Positions 9,609-19,276 of a stretch of 64,000 nucleotides of DNA are shown piece after piece. The translations under genes were made by a program, and so were the position numbers. The notes under the pieces were generated by a model. The model worked only from the letters and a program-made list of their open reading frames with translations, ran no database searches and was not told the DNA's origin. Source of the stretch: Parcubacteria group bacterium Gr01-1014_8 (GTDB taxonomy: Bacteria; Patescibacteriota; Minisyncoccia; Phycocordibacterales; UBA2100). Position 1 is the stretch's first letter; each line of letters starts with the position of its first letter. Location of the stretch: the NCBI GenBank assembly GCA_007376385.1, contig VMGC01000004.1, positions 32,001 through 96,000 of the forward strand, in the 5' to 3' direction.

Positions 9609-10112
9609 CTACGGCTTGATAGGAATTTCTTGAAATATGTGTTCTGTACCGCTTGGCGCGAATGCGTAGTCTGCGAAGCGTATCCACGTGGGTCGTATCC
9701 AGATAACAGCAGTCTTTTCAGGGTTCAGTTTGGACACGGGCGCAAAGAAATATGGATTGGCGTTGTATACATCCAAGATCTTGCTCCGTGTGCTTTGCAT
9801 GTCAGCGTCAAGAGAGACGTCTTTTGCCATGCCCTCTATTTGTATTGTTTGCGGTACATCTTCTCGCATGACGGTGAAAGCGACCTGCGGGTGCGCCGAT
9901 AGCGATGCATACTTTCGGCTCGAGGGGAGTGTTAGGAAATACACGTTGAATTCATCGTCGGCATAGTAATGAATGGCACTTGCATGCGGAATGTTGTCGT
10001 GTCCTGCGGTAGCAAGCACGCCCGTTTTGTTACGCTTTAGGAATGCAAGGGCATCGGCTCGTGCCGCCTGGTCGCTCATGGTGCCTATACTACCATTTAA
10101 TACTCTATTCAA
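9609..10112 (-). CDS. Pyridoxamine 5'-phosphate oxidase-like FMN-binding split-barrel protein (general stress protein 26-like)
   Basis: 167 aa with a PNPOx-like split-barrel pattern (GVLATAG..., ..VYFLT...). Encoded antisense between atpB and atpE. Confidence 0.65.
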   Translation of the reverse strand: MNRVLNGSIGTMSDQAARADALAFLKRNKTGVLATAGHDNIPHASAIHYYADDEFNVYFLTLPSSRKYASLSAHPQVAFTVMREDVPQTIQIEGMAKDVSLDADMQSTRSKILDVYNANPYFFAPVSKLNPEKTAVIWIRPTWIRFADYAFAPSGTEHIFQEIPIKP

Positions 10113-10117
10113 AGGGA

Positions 10118-10145
10118 TTGAGACGTTGAAATACTGTGCTATTAT
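10118..10145 (+). promoter_or_regulatory. Candidate sigma70-like promoter (TTGAGA - 16 nt - TATTAT) for the atpE-atpC genes
   Basis: -35 TTGAGA at 10118-10123 and -10 TATTAT at 10140-10145. A GC hairpin CCGCGGC-tt-GCCGCGG lies at about 10236-10251 in the leader. Confidence 0.25.
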
Positions 10146-10525: not shown

Positions 10526-10561
10526 ATCGGCGCACCATAGCGCCGAACGCTTTTTTGGCTC

Positions 10562-11134: not shown

Positions 11135-11521
11135 ATGGAAAAATCGTACGCGCAAGCTCTGTGGAATTGTGTCGAGAGGGGAATGGAGCCTGCGCATGCC
11201 GTGCGCTCGCTTCACCAAGGGCTTGAAAGACGAGGACGCGCTTCCCTGTGGCCGCAAATTGCGCGCGCATTTGAACGGCTCGCGTCGAGAGAGTCGCAAA
11301 AGAATCGCTCGGTCTTGATCGTCGCCGATAAAAGTCATGAGAAAGAAGCGCGTAAAGAGTCGGACGCGGAAGATGCCCGTCTCGTCGTTGATACAGGTTT
11401 GATCGGTGGATGGCGCTTTGAAAATAACGAGCAGTTGATTGATGCGAGTTTTAAGAAAAATCTTCTTGAATTGTATCAGCGGTCGACAAATGGTATGCAT
11501 TCGGCGGGCTACCAGCAGTAA
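11135..11521 (+). CDS. atpH: F0F1 ATP synthase subunit delta (short, 128 aa)
   Basis: C-terminal [11 protein letters not shown]...[12 protein letters not shown] matches the OSCP/delta C-terminal motif. An in-frame stop at 11075 precludes a longer N-terminus. Confidence 0.75.
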
Positions 11522-11538: not shown

Positions 11539-13110
11539 ATGGATTCAAAAGTTGTTCAAAAAATAGTAAATGAGATAGAAAAGTATCAACCGAAGGTTGA
11601 GAGCACACACGTCGGGCATGTGACGGCTGTGGGGGATGGAGTCGTCGCAATTGACGGACTATCGAAAGCGGTCATGAGCGAGATCGTGGAATTCGAGGAG
11701 ACGGGAGGAAAATCTTTGAAGGATTCAATGGAGACAGGCGGCACATTGTATGGCCTTGTGCTCAACTTGGAAGAAGACAGTGTGCGTGCGACGATCCTCG
11801 GTGATTCTGCAAGGGTTAGCGAGGGCATGACCGTAAAGTCAACCGGCCGGATCTTGTCGGTACCATCCGGGGATGAGCTACTTGGCCGCGTTGTGAACGC
11901 GCTCGGCGAACCAATTGATGGCAAAGGCCCTTTCAAGAATCCGACCATGATGCCCGTTGAGCGCGAAGCGTATGGCGTTATCTTTCGAAAATCAGTTTCG
12001 GTGCCTCTGCAGACCGGTGTAAAAGCAATCGACGCGACGATCCCGATAGGCCGCGGACAGCGAGAACTCATCATCGGCGACCGCTCGACTGGAAAAACAA
12101 CTATTGCCATCGATACTATCATCAATCAGAAGAATGAACCTGCCGAAAAAAGGCCCATTTGCATCTATGTCGCCATCGGTCAAAAGGAATCAAAAACAGC
12201 GCGTATCGTTGCGCAGCTGAGCGGGGAGGGGGCAATGGGGTACACAATTATCGTGGATGCACCTGCGTCTGCTCCCGCGGCGCTGCAATTTCTTGCACCA
12301 TTCGCTGGAGCTGCTATTGGCGAATACTTCATGGACCGAGGGAAGGACGTCTTGATAATTTATGACGACCTTTCAAAGCAGGCCGTCGCATACCGCCAGC
12401 TCTCACTTCTCCTCCGCCGACCGCCTGGTCGCGAGGCATATCCGGGGGACATCTTTTACCTGCATTCGCGCCTTTTGGAGAGGGCAGCGCGGCTCTCTGA
12501 TGAAAAAGGAGGCGGTTCGCTTACCGCGCTTCCGATCATTGAAACTCTGGACGGCGACATTTCTGCCTACATTCCAACAAACGTCATTTCCATCACCGAC
12601 GGTCAGATATTCCTAACAGCAGATCTCTTCAACAAAGGAGTGCGTCCGGCAGTGGATGTTGGTACCTCCGTATCCCGTGTCGGTTCTGCGGCTCAGACGA
12701 AAGCGATGAAAAGCGTAGCAGGAACACTTCGATTGGAACTGGCTCAATTCCGCGAACTCGAAGCGTTCATGCAATTTGCGCAGGACCTGGACAAAGCAAC
12801 TGCGGAGAAGATCGAAACCGGCCGCCGTATGGTGGAAGTGTTGAAGCAAAAGAACGGCGAACCGATGCCTCTTGAGCGGCAAGTTGTTGCCATTTACGCG
12901 GCAGGACAGAGGTTTTTTGCGGATGCTCCGGCAGCAAAAGTGACGGCAGTAGAGAAGAGACTTCTTGAATTCTTTGATAATAGATATTCTGAAGTTTTTA
13001 AAGCTATTAAAGAAAGAGGCATTATCGGCGATGACACGAAGAAGTTGCTCGATAAGGGGCTTCAAGAATTCAAGCAAGCTCAAAAAGAACTCTTCTCCCT
13101 TGCGAAATAG
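11539..13110 (+). CDS. atpA: F0F1 ATP synthase subunit alpha
   Basis: Walker [10 protein letters not shown] and full-length alpha-subunit similarity. Confidence 0.95.
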
Positions 13111-13113
13111 AGT

Positions 13114-14028
13114 ATGGCGGGATTGAAGAACATCAAGTTGAAGATTCAATCCGTAAAGAAGACCTCCACGGTAACCCGTGCGATGGAGGCGGTTTCTGCC
13201 GTAAAGATGCGAAAGGCGCAGCAGCGCGCTTTGACGGCAAGGCCGTACGCACTTTCTGCTTTCCGCGTTCTTCGCGGACTTTCAGGGAGCGTTGACCTCT
13301 TGAGCCATCCCTTAATGACTGAAAGAAAGGAGGGGAGAATTGCGGTCTTGTTGATAACGAGCGACAAAGGCCTCGCGGGCAGTTTGAATAGCGCAGTCCT
13401 TAAGAAAGTGGAGAATTTCATTAAAGGCAGAAATCTTAAACGAGACGACCTTATTTTTCTCTGTCTCGGAAAGCGCGGCTACGAATTCGCGCAGGCGCGC
13501 GGGTACAAAGTCGCGCATCGCCATATAAATATTTCGGACGATATCGACCTTGAAGAATTCGAGCAGATAACGAAACAAATAACGACACTGTATAACGACG
13601 GGATCGTGCGCGATGTGCATGCTGCATATACGAACTATGTTTCAACCTTCGAACAGCGCGCCGCGATGCACAAGATCCTTCCACTTTCGAGACTCATCGT
13701 TGAGCACATAGTTGCAGATATTGCGACGCCACGAGGAAAACTGTTAGACAAATTTGAGGCTGACGCCGTCCCAACATACATGGTAGAGCCCGATGCATCG
13801 GAAGTATTCACAATGCTTTTGCCGTTGCTCGTGAATGTGGCCATCTTTCACAAGCTATTGGAATCGAAAGCATCAGAACACTCGGCACGCATGGTTGCCA
13901 TGAAGAGCGCAACCGATAAGGCAAAGGAAATGTCACAAATTCTTACTCGCAAATTCAACAAGATCCGCCAAGCGGCGATCACGCGTGAAGTTTCAGAAAT
14001 TACAAGCGGTATCGAGGCGATGAAATAG
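13114..14028 (+). CDS. atpG: F0F1 ATP synthase subunit gamma
   Basis: Conserved N-terminal (IKLKIQSVKKTSTVTRAMEAVSAVKMRKAQ) and C-terminal helices typical of gamma. Confidence 0.9.
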   Translation: MAGLKNIKLKIQSVKKTSTVTRAMEAVSAVKMRKAQQRALTARPYALSAFRVLRGLSGSVDLLSHPLMTERKEGRIAVLLITSDKGLAGSLNSAVLKKVENFIKGRNLKRDDLIFLCLGKRGYEFAQARGYKVAHRHINISDDIDLEEFEQITKQITTLYNDGIVRDVHAAYTNYVSTFEQRAAMHKILPLSRLIVEHIVADIATPRGKLLDKFEADAVPTYMVEPDASEVFTMLLPLLVNVAIFHKLLESKASEHSARMVAMKSATDKAKEMSQILTRKFNKIRQAAITREVSEITSGIEAMK

Positions 14029-14030
14029 AT

Positions 14031-14468
14031 ATGTCAGACTCCCCTGATTGGTTAGGCAAGCTGAAACATATCGGAAGCGATAGTCCGCTCGTGAAAGAGG
14101 GATTGAGCCGAATGCAAGGTACAATGAACACATTTACCGCACGTTTTTCGCCGATTTCTTCTGAGGTTAATCGAATCACCGCAACGAAACTTTGGAAAGA
14201 GCAAGTTATACCGATATTTGCTCGCGCGATCCACGAAATAAACTACCTCGACATCGTTAAAAACCGCGGTCTTGCCAATCCACTCCGGCATCAGGCATTG
14301 TCTGCCGCCGACGATAAGTTGAGGCAAGCGGAAGCCGAGTGTCGAAATATGAACACACAAAGCAGACTCGCGGCGCTTGTAGGTCCAGAGGATGAAATTC
14401 GGCGTTTGAGAATTGAACTCTGGGGATTCCTCCTAGCGTGGGACAAGGCTGAGCTTTCAAGTGATTAG
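14031..14468 (+). CDS. Hypothetical protein inserted between atpG and atpD
   Basis: 145-aa ORF starting 2 nt after the atpG stop. Soluble and helical, with no recognisable motif. Confidence 0.5.
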   Translation: MSDSPDWLGKLKHIGSDSPLVKEGLSRMQGTMNTFTARFSPISSEVNRITATKLWKEQVIPIFARAIHEINYLDIVKNRGLANPLRHQALSAADDKLRQAEAECRNMNTQSRLAALVGPEDEIRRLRIELWGFLLAWDKAELSSD

Positions 14469-14500
14469 GATTGAATTTATTTATAAAACCTGTAATCTAG

Positions 14501-15886
<1,386 letters not shown>

Positions 15887-15887
15887 T

Positions 15888-16136
15888 ATGGTTGCTGTGA
15901 GAACGTTTCGGCTCGTCATAACATCTGTTACGGGAGCACAATTCGATGGCGATGCTATTTCCGCGACGCTACCTGGTTCTGCCGGCGAAATGACGATCCT
16001 TGCGCATCACGAACCCCTCGTTAGCACGCTTCGAAAAGGTTCGATAAAAGTGAGGACAGAACAAGGCTCACAGGAGATAAAAGTGGAAAAGGGGGTTGTG
16101 GAGTGCTCAAGCAACCGCGTCACCATCTTAGTCTAG
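15888..16136 (+). CDS. atpC: F0F1 ATP synthase subunit epsilon (N-terminal beta-sandwich only, 82 aa)
   Basis: Starts 2 nt after atpD. Sequence is similar to the epsilon N-domain and the C-terminal helical hairpin is absent. Confidence 0.8.
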   Translation: MVAVRTFRLVITSVTGAQFDGDAISATLPGSAGEMTILAHHEPLVSTLRKGSIKVRTEQGSQEIKVEKGVVECSSNRVTILV

Positions 16137-16195: not shown

Positions 16196-17293
16196 ATGCG
16201 CGTACATGCGGTGTATACCGTTGGTTTTCTCGCCAGTGTGGTGATGATTCTTTTGATTCCCGGGTGGATCCTTGCAGCTCTGCCTACCGGTTTGACGCCG
16301 AAAGTAACATTTAGCGGAGCCGCTTCGACCTACAATCCGCAGTGCGAAGCTGAACAGTGGAATACATCAACAGGACAGAGATACAATCCGAATGAATGGG
16401 CCGCAGCGTTGCAACAAGGCTATGCGCAAAAATATCGATGCGGGTACGGCACGGGCAGAGTATGTTGTGCTGTTGTACAAGAACCCGGGGGTCGAGCTCT
16501 TATACTTAAGATAAATGATAATGGTCCTCTCAAACCGGGGAGGGTCATCGATTTGAATGAAAAATCAATGCGGTACCTTAGCTACGAAAAGTTCGGCAAT
16601 TGTAACGGATTGATCCCCCGTGTGAGCGTGGCGCTCCTAGACGGGTCGAGCTGTCCAATGGGTCCGGTCGAAGAAGCCGACAAGAAAGCTTGGAACGATA
16701 AAGTTGTAAGCGCACCTGCAGACACAGGACCGGTAGGTCCAAGCGCGGCTACCGGAGTCCCAGCACCGAGCGGTTTTCCAACAACCATCGGCCAGGCCTA
16801 TCAGGGGAATCAACCAACACAGGCGCAGCAGTATATGCCTTCACAGCCGGCGGTAGCGCAGAACCAGCCGGGGGGAATGCAACCGACGTCATACTTCAAC
16901 CCGCAACAGCCTGCGCAAAATCCATCAATGCCTTTGCCTTCCATGTCCCAACCCGCAGCGCAAGACAGTACGCAGATCGAGTCGGTCACAGAACGGATCT
17001 CGAATTTTCTAAAAGGTGGTACAACGGAAAAACCCATTGATACGAAGTCGCTCACGTTTGATTCACGTGTAAGTTCGAAAGTGATACTTTCTCCGGAGCA
17101 CCCAGCGTCCGGCAGTTCGGCAAGTACGAGCTCAAGCACGCCGCTGGCGCCGTCGCAAACCTTCGTTTCGCCCGACATGGCTTTCTCTGAGCCGAGTGAG
17201 CCCGTGAATCAGCGGCTGATCGCTATTCTCGAGACAATTCGCTTAGCCGCGCTCAAACTGTTGGCGAGGTTGAGACAACTAGTACCGCTCTGA
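16196..17293 (+). CDS. Membrane-anchored RlpA-like double-psi beta-barrel protein with Pro/Gln/Ser-rich tail
   Basis: N-terminal TM/signal. The segment SGAASTYNP...GYGTG...ILKINDNGPL..RVIDLNEKSMRYL resembles the RlpA/expansin-like DPBB fold, followed by a low-complexity PQ-rich linker. Confidence 0.5.
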   Translation: MRVHAVYTVGFLASVVMILLIPGWILAALPTGLTPKVTFSGAASTYNPQCEAEQWNTSTGQRYNPNEWAAALQQGYAQKYRCGYGTGRVCCAVVQEPGGRALILKINDNGPLKPGRVIDLNEKSMRYLSYEKFGNCNGLIPRVSVALLDGSSCPMGPVEEADKKAWNDKVVSAPADTGPVGPSAATGVPAPSGFPTTIGQAYQGNQPTQAQQYMPSQPAVAQNQPGGMQPTSYFNPQQPAQNPSMPLPSMSQPAAQDSTQIESVTERISNFLKGGTTEKPIDTKSLTFDSRVSSKVILSPEHPASGSSASTSSSTPLAPSQTFVSPDMAFSEPSEPVNQRLIAILETIRLAALKLLARLRQLVPL

Positions 17294-17362: not shown

Positions 17363-19276
17363 ATGCGGGCTATCCTAGGCCTTTGTTTTGTGTTGCTAGC
17401 GGCTTTACCGGTGTTCGCCATCACAGTGCCTGCAAATCCAACGACTGACGCAGAGCAGGCGGAAAGATCCTGCGCGGGCGAACAAACCGCAAAAACCGGT
17501 GAAGACGCAAAAGGAAAAATCGATTGTTCTCTAAAGTGCGGATCGAGAGTGATGAAGGTTGAGAAGGGAAAAGTTGTCATAACAAAAGACGAAAAAGGAA
17601 AGCAGTGCAGCGACCTTCAAAAAAATGTAATTTGCAAAACGTTGCCCAATAGTCCCGATTGCTGCACAGGCACCATCAGGTTTGTTTCGCCTGACATTCG
17701 AACGCCGGATAGGGTATTTTCTCGGTGCTCTCGCGATGATAAAGAGATCGAAAAGCAGGCTGAGCTGTTTGAAAATCTTGCAGGGAGGCAGCAGACTGCA
17801 ACAAATCTCAATGACCTTATTCAGTCAGTCGATCCGGATCTGCCATTGCCTGAAGGCATCCATCAAGAACTCAAGAACGGTCTTATGGAGCTCGGTTTTA
17901 CGCCCGGCCAGGCGGATGAGCTCATTCCTAAACTTGTCGGAAATCAGCAGAGTGCGGAAGATGCGCTCGATAAGATAGCGACGGGCAGAGCAGGATCTAT
18001 TACTGCAGACGAGCATGGTTTCAGCCTTTCTGACGCTGAGCGCTCGAATTTGCAGGCGCATATGGAAGCTTTGCAACCCGGTGAGCGTCCGCTCGACGAA
18101 GAACAGACTGACCCCGCCGTCGCGAGATGCAACGCTGGCGAAGAGTGTCCGGATAATACGTTCAAAGATGACGAAAAGGATGCATTGCTTCATCAGGCGG
18201 CGCTAAAAGATGATGTTGCAGACATGTGCGGGAAGCTCGACGGATGTTCCGTGGAATGCAGTGCAAGAAATCCGCTCGTATGCGTGACTCAGAATCCCGG
18301 TGCCGTCGTGTGCAGTCCTATTGCTAGAAGATTCGGTTGCAGTACGTGCGATCCCAACAATAACACTGCAATATGTCCGTCCATGGAAGCAGGAATTGCA
18401 TTGCAGGCTGTGCTCCTCCGTGAGAATGGTCGTTACTTCGGCTCCGGACAGAAATCAATACTTCAGGCATTTTGCAGCGGTTATTCGGCATCAAATTGCG
18501 GTCCGTATGCGCAATTCGTCGCCAGTCGAACGAGTATACCCATCAATCAAACTATTGACCCAAACAATACGGAACAGTTGGCGCGCATCATGATGGCGAG
18601 TTCTCGTTTTGAAAGCGGCCGGGGCGTGCTGTATTCGCCTGAACAGTTGCAACACGGTCTGGAGATCGCGTACGGTACGAGGGAACTCCCGCCCGCGACG
18701 CCAGGGTATGTCCCAAATTTCACTGCCGGCGGCTTGCCTAACGCTACGTCGCCATTCAACATTGGCTATGGAAATGATCCGTTCAGCACCGGCTTCGGGT
18801 CTCCCTTCGGCACGGGGACAAATGTGGGAACTCCGACAAATGTCGGGTACCCCACGAACACCGGGTATCCGGCCCAAAGTGGCTACGGCAGCGGGGGGAT
18901 CCCAGGGGGAACGGGGCCATCGCAAATCCCTGTTTCCCCGATCCCAATATCTCAGATCATTGATCCTCAAGGTCAGATGATGACCGTCGTGTCGATGCAG
19001 CCTGTGATAACGCTCATCGCAGAGCCAAATGAGATAGTACGAGGAAAAGGGGCTATCGTCTCATGGTCAGCGGTTGGTGTGAAGACGGAACCGAAATGTT
19101 CAATAACGAAAAGCGGTGTCGCAGGTTCGGGTACGTTTGCGGGGGGCAACGACGGCGCCAAACGTCTGAAAACGACGAAACAAATGTCGCCCGGCGTTGT
19201 TACACTTACAATGAAGTGTGTTTCAAGCGCAACAGGCCAAGTGCTCGAAAAAGGACAGCAAATCACCGTACGATGA
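17363..19276 (+). CDS. Large secreted cysteine-rich protein (637 aa), unknown function
   Basis: Signal peptide MRAILGLCFVLLAALPVFA. More than 30 Cys in the mature part, a G/T/P/Y-rich low-complexity segment, and a C-terminal beta-rich region. Confidence 0.6.
   Translation: MRAILGLCFVLLAALPVFAITVPANPTTDAEQAERSCAGEQTAKTGEDAKGKIDCSLKCGSRVMKVEKGKVVITKDEKGKQCSDLQKNVICKTLPNSPDCCTGTIRFVSPDIRTPDRVFSRCSRDDKEIEKQAELFENLAGRQQTATNLNDLIQSVDPDLPLPEGIHQELKNGLMELGFTPGQADELIPKLVGNQQSAEDALDKIATGRAGSITADEHGFSLSDAERSNLQAHMEALQPGERPLDEEQTDPAVARCNAGEECPDNTFKDDEKDALLHQAALKDDVADMCGKLDGCSVECSARNPLVCVTQNPGAVVCSPIARRFGCSTCDPNNNTAICPSMEAGIALQAVLLRENGRYFGSGQKSILQAFCSGYSASNCGPYAQFVASRTSIPINQTIDPNNTEQLARIMMASSRFESGRGVLYSPEQLQHGLEIAYGTRELPPATPGYVPNFTAGGLPNATSPFNIGYGNDPFSTGFGSPFGTGTNVGTPTNVGYPTNTGYPAQSGYGSGGIPGGTGPSQIPVSPIPISQIIDPQGQMMTVVSMQPVITLIAEPNEIVRGKGAIVSWSAVGVKTEPKCSITKSGVAGSGTFAGGNDGAKRLKTTKQMSPGVVTLTMKCVSSATGQVLEKGQQITVR

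Follow-up and report, generated by a model that had tools for sequence, protein, structure and literature searches.

An orphan gene between atpG and atpD in a Parcubacteria ATP synthase operon occupies a hypervariable junction

Among bacterial gene orders, that of the F1 genes in the atp operon is usually one of the most rigid. Small inhibitors of F1 include mitochondrial IF1, alphaproteobacterial zeta, cyanobacterial AtpTheta and the C-terminal helical domain of the epsilon subunit; the known inhibitors are small helical proteins that are mutually non-homologous, and zeta and IF1 are conserved across their own clades and usually not encoded inside the atp operon. Flexible islets, hypervariable slots between core genes whose content is exchanged by homologous recombination, are general in bacterial genomes. 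Here we analyse a 145-amino-acid (aa) open reading frame (ORF) that lies between atpG and atpD, the genes for F1 gamma and beta, in a 64,000-nucleotide (nt) stretch of DNA (the window) from Parcubacteria group bacterium Gr01-1014_8, a groundwater Parcubacteria in whose record the ORF is annotated as hypothetical protein G01um10148_785 and whose contig and locus names point to groundwater of the Hainich type. We find that the ORF belongs to no described protein family and that the junction it occupies carries non-homologous genes, or none, in related genomes. The reading we favour, and regard as moderately probable, is that the ORF is a passenger gene restricted to its lineage and situated in a hypervariable slot of the atp operon; it would be expressed with F1 and have a selected function of its own, but be dispensable for the enzyme.

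The ORF is a conserved gene

The ORF occupies positions 14031–14468 on the + strand, runs from ATG to TAG and encodes a protein of about 16.5 kDa (isoelectric point (pI) 7.9) with no predicted membrane segments. It starts 2 nt 3′ of the atpG stop codon and ends 50 nt 5′ of atpD in the same orientation, just as a preliminary description of this DNA had placed it. Its sole homologue is a full 146-aa ORF at L001:359–799, for which the database has a later start codon and a shorter product, P0002 (136 aa). Identity between the two is 70% over 145 codons, and the full length and both ends are conserved. Their differences number 32, 21 and 87 at codon positions 1, 2 and 3, and the proportion of non-synonymous differences (pN) is 0.174 against a saturated 0.825 for synonymous ones (pS). 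The adjacent C terminus of atpG, compared between the same two genomes, falls in the same regime (pN 0.233, pS 0.764). Because the identical protein, with the same neighbours, is found on three independently assembled contigs, the ORF is no assembly or frameshift artefact. Its composition is that of the window (GC 0.489 versus 0.494) and its codon usage matches that of neighbouring genes, so a foreign composition was rejected.

By this pattern of substitution the ORF is a genuine gene under purifying selection. Its being a non-functional spacer, a decayed remnant or an artefact of annotation or assembly is extremely improbable: a family of just two members, without a known domain and with a structure model of low confidence, would suit such an origin, but the strong third-codon-position bias and the gap between pN (0.17) and pS (0.83) effectively refute it, and the conserved length and termini and the identical sequence in three assemblies also count against it. 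The poor coding potential or frameshift that the preliminary description had envisaged as a possible refutation was thus not borne out. An overprinted remnant of rdgB or of a NUDIX gene, both of which occur at this junction in relatives, was also rejected, the window having no tblastn similarity to either at E ≤ 0.01.

The protein belongs to no described family

No Pfam-A family matched the ORF at E ≤ 1, or its homologue at E ≤ 10, and neither NCBIfam nor PADLOC gave a match to the ORF at E ≤ 10. The best PHROG match was not significant (E 0.14 over 26 residues), and searches of the PDB by sequence, with the single protein and with a profile, returned no usable match (best E 0.95). The homologue described above is the one relative among 5.8 billion clustered proteins (word-indexed search) and 1.84 billion representatives (exhaustive phmmer), and scans of JGI metagenome contigs and IMG/VR viral contigs yielded no further copy. 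Two weaker signals were discarded. An additional phmmer match, to P0003 (E 3.5e-5), is repeat-inflated noise from a 1007-aa, apparently eukaryotic, immunoglobulin-like repeat protein that matches a 30-residue stretch six times, and weak tblastn matches in L015 and L022 (E ~3) lie inside the C terminus of a 650-aa DNA polymerase III alpha-like protein.

An AlphaFold model built from the two available sequences is of low confidence (predicted local distance difference test (pLDDT) 63, predicted template modelling score (pTM) 0.52). It comprises four long helices (residues 19–39, 45–78, 86–109 and 119–143) preceded by a low-confidence N terminus, with pLDDT below 50 over residues 1–5 and no long helix before residue 19. 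As modelled, the product is probably a small soluble all-alpha protein, a generic four-helix bundle, and ATP synthase chains are absent among the structural matches listed for it. The ORF matches no sequence profile of the canonical F-type subunits (a, b, c, delta, alpha, gamma, beta, epsilon and AtpI), and the eight canonical subunits are all separately encoded in the window; sequence-profile or fold similarity to IF1, zeta/DUF1476, the epsilon C-terminal domain, Atp11 or Atp12 was likewise not found. The profile and structure searches that the preliminary description had proposed therefore agree with its impression of an ORF unlike any described subunit or inhibitor of the ATP synthase.

The gamma–beta junction is hypervariable

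We surveyed the gamma–beta junction in about 70 Kaiserbacteria-like operons with gamma subunits 50–77% identical, fetching 80 further loci at gamma 50–68%. In the closest relatives (gamma 69–77%), no gene after atpG resembles the ORF. At L040 and on the second contig of ERZ27297570, atpG is followed directly by atpD. Elsewhere in this set it is followed by a 92-aa coiled-coil protein (L036); by a 116-aa protein homologous to that of L036, a 123-aa orphan and atpD (L037/L038); by a 106-aa orphan and atpD (L039); by a 118-aa uncharacterized protein and atpD (the first contig of ERZ27297570); or by a 373-aa uncharacterized protein, a GNAT acetyltransferase and atpD (a JGI contig). In GTDB representatives with gamma 41–50% identical, atpD follows atpG directly after gaps of 25–75 nt.

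Across the survey, atpG leads directly to atpD (≤100 nt) in 22 non-redundant loci, and 46 loci are occupied by one to six genes, all on the same strand. In 31 of the 46, no Pfam family matches the first occupant, and these proteins form at least eight mutually unrelated groups, with several singletons. The other first occupants, confirmed by Pfam, are Ham1/RdgB (7 loci), NUDIX (6), CYTH (1) and an MntA–HepT toxin–antitoxin pair (1). A common order is atpG, small orphan, RdgB, NUDIX, atpD. Whatever the first gene is, including RdgB and an orphan family of ~200 aa, it starts 1–4 nt past the atpG stop, so tight spacing is generic to these compact genomes. The ORF does not show conserved co-occurrence with the atp operon across the lineage, having two carriers against 22 loci with a direct junction. 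What the comparison reveals is a hypervariable slot between conserved flanks, as where L001/L002 read atpG–ORF146–rdgB and L070 reads atpG–rdgB around an unrelated 113-aa gene.

These results bear on the proposal, made from position in the preliminary description, that the ORF is a candidate lineage-specific accessory or regulatory protein of the ATP synthase. In the synteny comparison suggested there, one other carrier has the gene after atpG, but the nearest relatives (gamma 69–77%) lack it while keeping an otherwise identical operon, an outcome that the same description had said would refute its proposal. With direct or non-homologous junctions in close relatives, position lends that role no support.

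In many Kaiserbacteria-like genomes, Ham1/RdgB (~199 aa, 20 loci) and NUDIX (~139 aa, 24 copies) lie between atpG and atpD on the same strand and tightly packed, for example at L072:4922–6300, L097:1938–3340 and L120:4938–6340 (among loci L042–L120). Together with the CYTH protein of one locus, they are nucleoside triphosphate house-cleaning enzymes placed inside the F1 operon. Neither RdgB nor NUDIX is found in the window (tblastn, E ≤ 0.01). Further afield, a distant Weeksellaceae metagenome-assembled genome (Bacteroidota) has a 602-nt atpG–atpD gap with a 189-aa uncharacterized ORF (L021:6860–7430), so occupation of this junction is not unique to the candidate phyla radiation (CPR). In one Patescibacteria locus with a direct gamma–beta junction, a 94-aa acidic low-complexity ORF (L005:8324–8608) lies between atpD and a 76-aa atpC.

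Probable turnover of slot content by gene replacement

The ORF is isolated from the other occupants of the slot. A profile of the ORF searched against all junction ORFs (hmmsearch) found no similarity (best E 0.37), jackhmmer left the ORF pair apart from the other slot families, and hhalign against two of these, famA and famB, gave probabilities of 1.9% (A2 versus A4) and 1.2% (A2 versus A5). A likeness noticed by eye between the ORF motif ARFSPISSEVNRI and ERYGLTTAEVNSI of famA is unsupported by the hidden Markov model and hhalign comparisons.

In the second carrier, the gene after the ORF homologue is RdgB (L002), and the order runs atpG–ORF146–rdgB onward. This order was considered as a sign of a broken operon and rejected, because rdgB is common at the gamma–beta junction (20 loci). 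The two carriers are, by sequence comparison of their flanks, not mutual nearest relatives. In the 113 C-terminal residues of gamma, the window comes nearest to L040, L037, L036 and L039 (73–75%) and is only 68% identical to L001, which is itself closest to L070 (85%) and L086 (83%). Between the same atpG and rdgB flanks, L070 carries another gene, a famA-like one of 113 aa. The N terminus of the L002 RdgB is closest to those of L048 (88%) and L061 (82%), whose gamma C termini are only 75% identical, and the RdgB proteins of L070 and L086 are only 54–56% identical to that of the second carrier. Over 22 loci, gamma and RdgB flank similarities are uncorrelated (Spearman 0.0).

Such mosaic flanks suggest recombination within the junction. 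Since the ORF evolves slowly (70% identity, like the gamma C terminus) and equally close genomes carry non-homologous occupants, the differences in content point to whole-gene replacement and not to divergence.

A variable islet of this kind might hold genes of biological conflict, the ORF being an antitoxin-like, immunity, anti-phage or anti-defence protein in a recombination-prone islet inside the atp operon. An MntA-like nucleotidyltransferase and HepT pair does occur between gamma and beta at L048:2197–2876, L049:5245–5924 and L086:4943–5568 (Pfam Polbeta/NTP_transf_2 and HepT-like), and the rapid replacement by unrelated orphans and the mosaic flanks are those of variable islets. The ORF itself, however, shows no membership in anti-phage defence, toxin–antitoxin or phage proteins: PADLOC returned nothing, the best PHROG match was that at E 0.14, and the viral contigs of IMG/VR hold no copy. 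It is moreover a single gene without a partner in the window and evolves slowly between its two carriers. We consider a conflict-system role distinctly improbable.

A passenger gene or a regulator of F1

In the passenger reading that we favour, the site immediately downstream of atpG would be a hypervariable cargo site characteristic of Kaiserbacteria-like Paceibacteria. As the layout suggests, the ORF would be transcribed from the atp promoter upstream of atpE and translated close-packed after gamma, and purifying selection would keep it for a function of its own. Slot content would turn over by whole-gene replacement, probably through homologous recombination in conserved sequence, at the 3′ end of atpG on one side and at the 5′ end of rdgB or atpD on the other, a route proposed because the two flanks have incongruent affinities. 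As most relatives lack the ORF, its function would be dispensable for the ATP synthase, and the protein is therefore most likely no stoichiometric subunit.

Several observations weigh against this reading. Each of the two known copies of the ORF follows atpG immediately and no copy is known from another location, which leaves some weight to a gamma-linked function. Throughout the clade the truncated epsilon has no inhibitory C-terminal domain and delta is short, so that a substitute regulator would have a place. The slot orphans that we examined (famA, famB, the coiled-coil family and several singletons) look small, hydrophilic and helical like known F1 inhibitors; a few other orphan occupants are apparently membrane proteins. 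The incongruence of the flanks is read from short segments (113 and 57 aa) and, for the second carrier, from two short contigs joined where they are identical at their overlap. At the flanks, a search for repeats and mobile-element signatures found none, and the mechanism of exchange is one that we infer.

The principal competing explanation is that the ORF encodes a lineage-specific F1 accessory protein or regulator. As a small helical protein it might inhibit ATP hydrolysis, or it might be an assembly factor directed at gamma, in place of the missing epsilon C-terminal domain and much as IF1, zeta or AtpTheta act elsewhere; the other post-gamma proteins would be its non-homologous analogues. 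Both ORF copies lie 2–4 nt after atpG on the same strand, no terminator or promoter was found before atpD, and the ORF is as constrained as gamma. Epsilon consists of the beta-sandwich only (76–83 aa) and delta is truncated (~120–128 aa), both clade-wide among the relatives examined, and many relatives have some small helical orphan first after atpG. Against this stand the absence of the ORF from close relatives with an otherwise identical operon, the presence of enzymes and a toxin–antitoxin pair in the same slot, and the fact that epsilon and delta are short whether the slot is filled or empty. That independence leaves no pattern of compensation, and the ORF as a stand-in for the epsilon C-terminal domain or the N-terminal part of delta was accordingly rejected. 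We regard a role as F1 regulator as possible but rather unlikely.

The truncations themselves suggest a minimal F1Fo without the usual epsilon autoinhibition. A broader form of the regulatory idea is that the post-gamma helical proteins of Kaiserbacteria-like CPR bacteria, the ORF product included, constitute a class of non-homologous, rapidly replaced regulators of this minimal F1Fo, from which the epsilon C-terminal domain and part of delta have been lost; they might be, for example, interchangeable inhibitors of wasteful ATP hydrolysis like IF1, zeta and AtpTheta. We hold this to be quite doubtful. If it were true, ATP synthase regulators would have been invented or exchanged repeatedly within one clade.

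Organization of the window operon

The atpA gene (F1 alpha, 523 aa, positions 11539–13110, + strand, with ATP-synt_ab domains) ends 3 nt before atpG (F1 gamma, 304 aa, 13114–14028, + strand; Pfam PF00231 ATP-synt, E 1.7e-79), and the alpha–gamma junction is thus empty in the window genome. The same junction in relatives is often filled by small (77–164 aa), coiled-coil-like orphans that are mutually dissimilar, as at L040:2573–2959, L059:3642–3992, L078:3621–3992, L081:3648–3998 and L119:3583–3999. Inside the 3′ end of atpG, 13 nt upstream of the ATG of the ORF, lies a weak Shine–Dalgarno candidate, GAGG (14014–14017, + strand). The ORF is separated by an AT-rich spacer of 50 nt (14469–14518, + strand) from atpD (F1 beta, 455 aa, 14519–15886, + strand; Pfam PF00006 ATP-synt_ab, E 1.7e-72), which is followed by atpC (epsilon, 82 aa, 15888–16136, + strand). 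The Pfam domain ATP-synt_DE_N covers residues 7–82 of the atpC product, which has the beta-sandwich domain only. The delta protein of the window (11135–11521) is only 128 aa long and covers positions 68–168 of the 172 of the OSCP profile.

The best promoter-like site of the region (10118–10145, + strand) lies upstream of atpE and reads TTGAGA-16-TATTAT with an upstream TG; its 10 of 12 matches are a match to consensus only. Neither a consensus promoter or terminator nor an Rfam match was found in the 50 nt that precede atpD, and this spacer folds no better than its shuffled counterparts (z-score −0.37). Direct or inverted repeats such as would flank a mobile cassette were not found beside the ORF. 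A mobile cassette with flanking repeats, a structured RNA and a promoter or terminator in the spacer were thus all looked for without success. A spacer free of promoter- or terminator-like sites makes co-transcription of the ORF with the F1 genes plausible, and the ORF is likely to be transcribed as part of atpE-F-H-A-G-ORF-D-C from the site at 10118–10145. The preliminary description had called co-transcription almost certain; by the shared strand, the tight packing and the spacer it is plausible.

Four further features were noted around these genes. A terminator-like hairpin and T-run (TCGGCGCACCATAGCGCCGA, then ACGCTTTTTT) lie at 10527–10556, directly after atpE (the c subunit gene), and could form an intra-operon attenuator that sets an excess of c over the other subunits. 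Between atpB and atpE, on the − strand, is a gene for a PNPOx-like protein of the pyridoxamine 5′-phosphate oxidase family (9609–10112); in one relative a PNPOx-family gene lies just after atpC instead, on the opposite strand. Directly downstream of atpC, positions 16196–17293 encode a protein of 365 aa that combines a DPBB_1 (RlpA-like lytic transglycosylase) domain with a long tail of low complexity, rich in P, Q and S. The product of the next gene (17363–19276) is a Cys-rich protein of 637 aa that is apparently secreted and matches no Pfam family.

Implications

Taken alone, the ORF is one more conserved hypothetical protein; what is less ordinary is its junction. Within a single CPR clade, the gamma–beta and often the alpha–gamma junction are broken by a changing set of co-oriented orphans, Ham1/RdgB, NUDIX, CYTH and a toxin–antitoxin pair, and in the searchable literature we found no description of genes inserted in CPR atp operons. 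If the occupants are passengers, position inside a core operon is weak functional evidence in these genomes, which calls for caution in annotation by guilt by association, and the junction further suggests an islet that recombination drives within an operon essential to the cell. Should some of the occupants act on F1, a stripped-down ATP synthase would have new regulators, in organisms of whose energy metabolism little is understood.

Comparison with known systems

Like the known F1 inhibitors, the ORF product is predicted to be small, soluble and helical, not membrane-bound, and its gene adjoins those of F1 in a lineage with an epsilon devoid of the inhibitory domain. Alphaproteobacterial zeta is a four-helix bundle with a disordered inhibitory N terminus, and the low-confidence N terminus and ensuing helical bundle predicted for the ORF resemble it in outline. 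In contrast to these inhibitors, the ORF has no profile match (no Pfam family at E ≤ 1) and no ATP synthase chain among the structural matches listed, and it occurs in two lineages only and is missing from their nearest relatives.

The closest counterparts by position are the other proteins of the post-gamma slot: famA (109–125 aa), famB (114–123 aa), the GFDEVNDKLDRVID coiled-coil family (91–116 aa) and many singletons. Like the ORF, the genes of these proteins come first after atpG, at 1–4 nt and on the same strand. Their sizes are similar, and the proteins examined look hydrophilic and helical. Representatives tested have no Pfam match above the cut-off and are near-orphans as well, famA having only 5 members among the 5.8 billion clustered proteins. 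They differ from the ORF in that homology between them is undetectable and in that the ORF, with 145 aa and a pI of 7.9, is the longer and less acidic.

With flexible islets the slot shares conserved flanks (atpG and rdgB or atpD), non-homologous and patchy content that includes a toxin–antitoxin module, and incongruent flank affinities. It differs in that no integrase, repeats or attachment-like sites were seen at it, in that it sits among the F1 genes of an operon that is essential and normally invariant, and in that its cargo is all co-oriented and tightly packed and so has to be expressed along with the operon. Islets of variable content between conserved flanks are already known; one inside the F1 gene block, recurring across a CPR clade, is an unusual variant of them.
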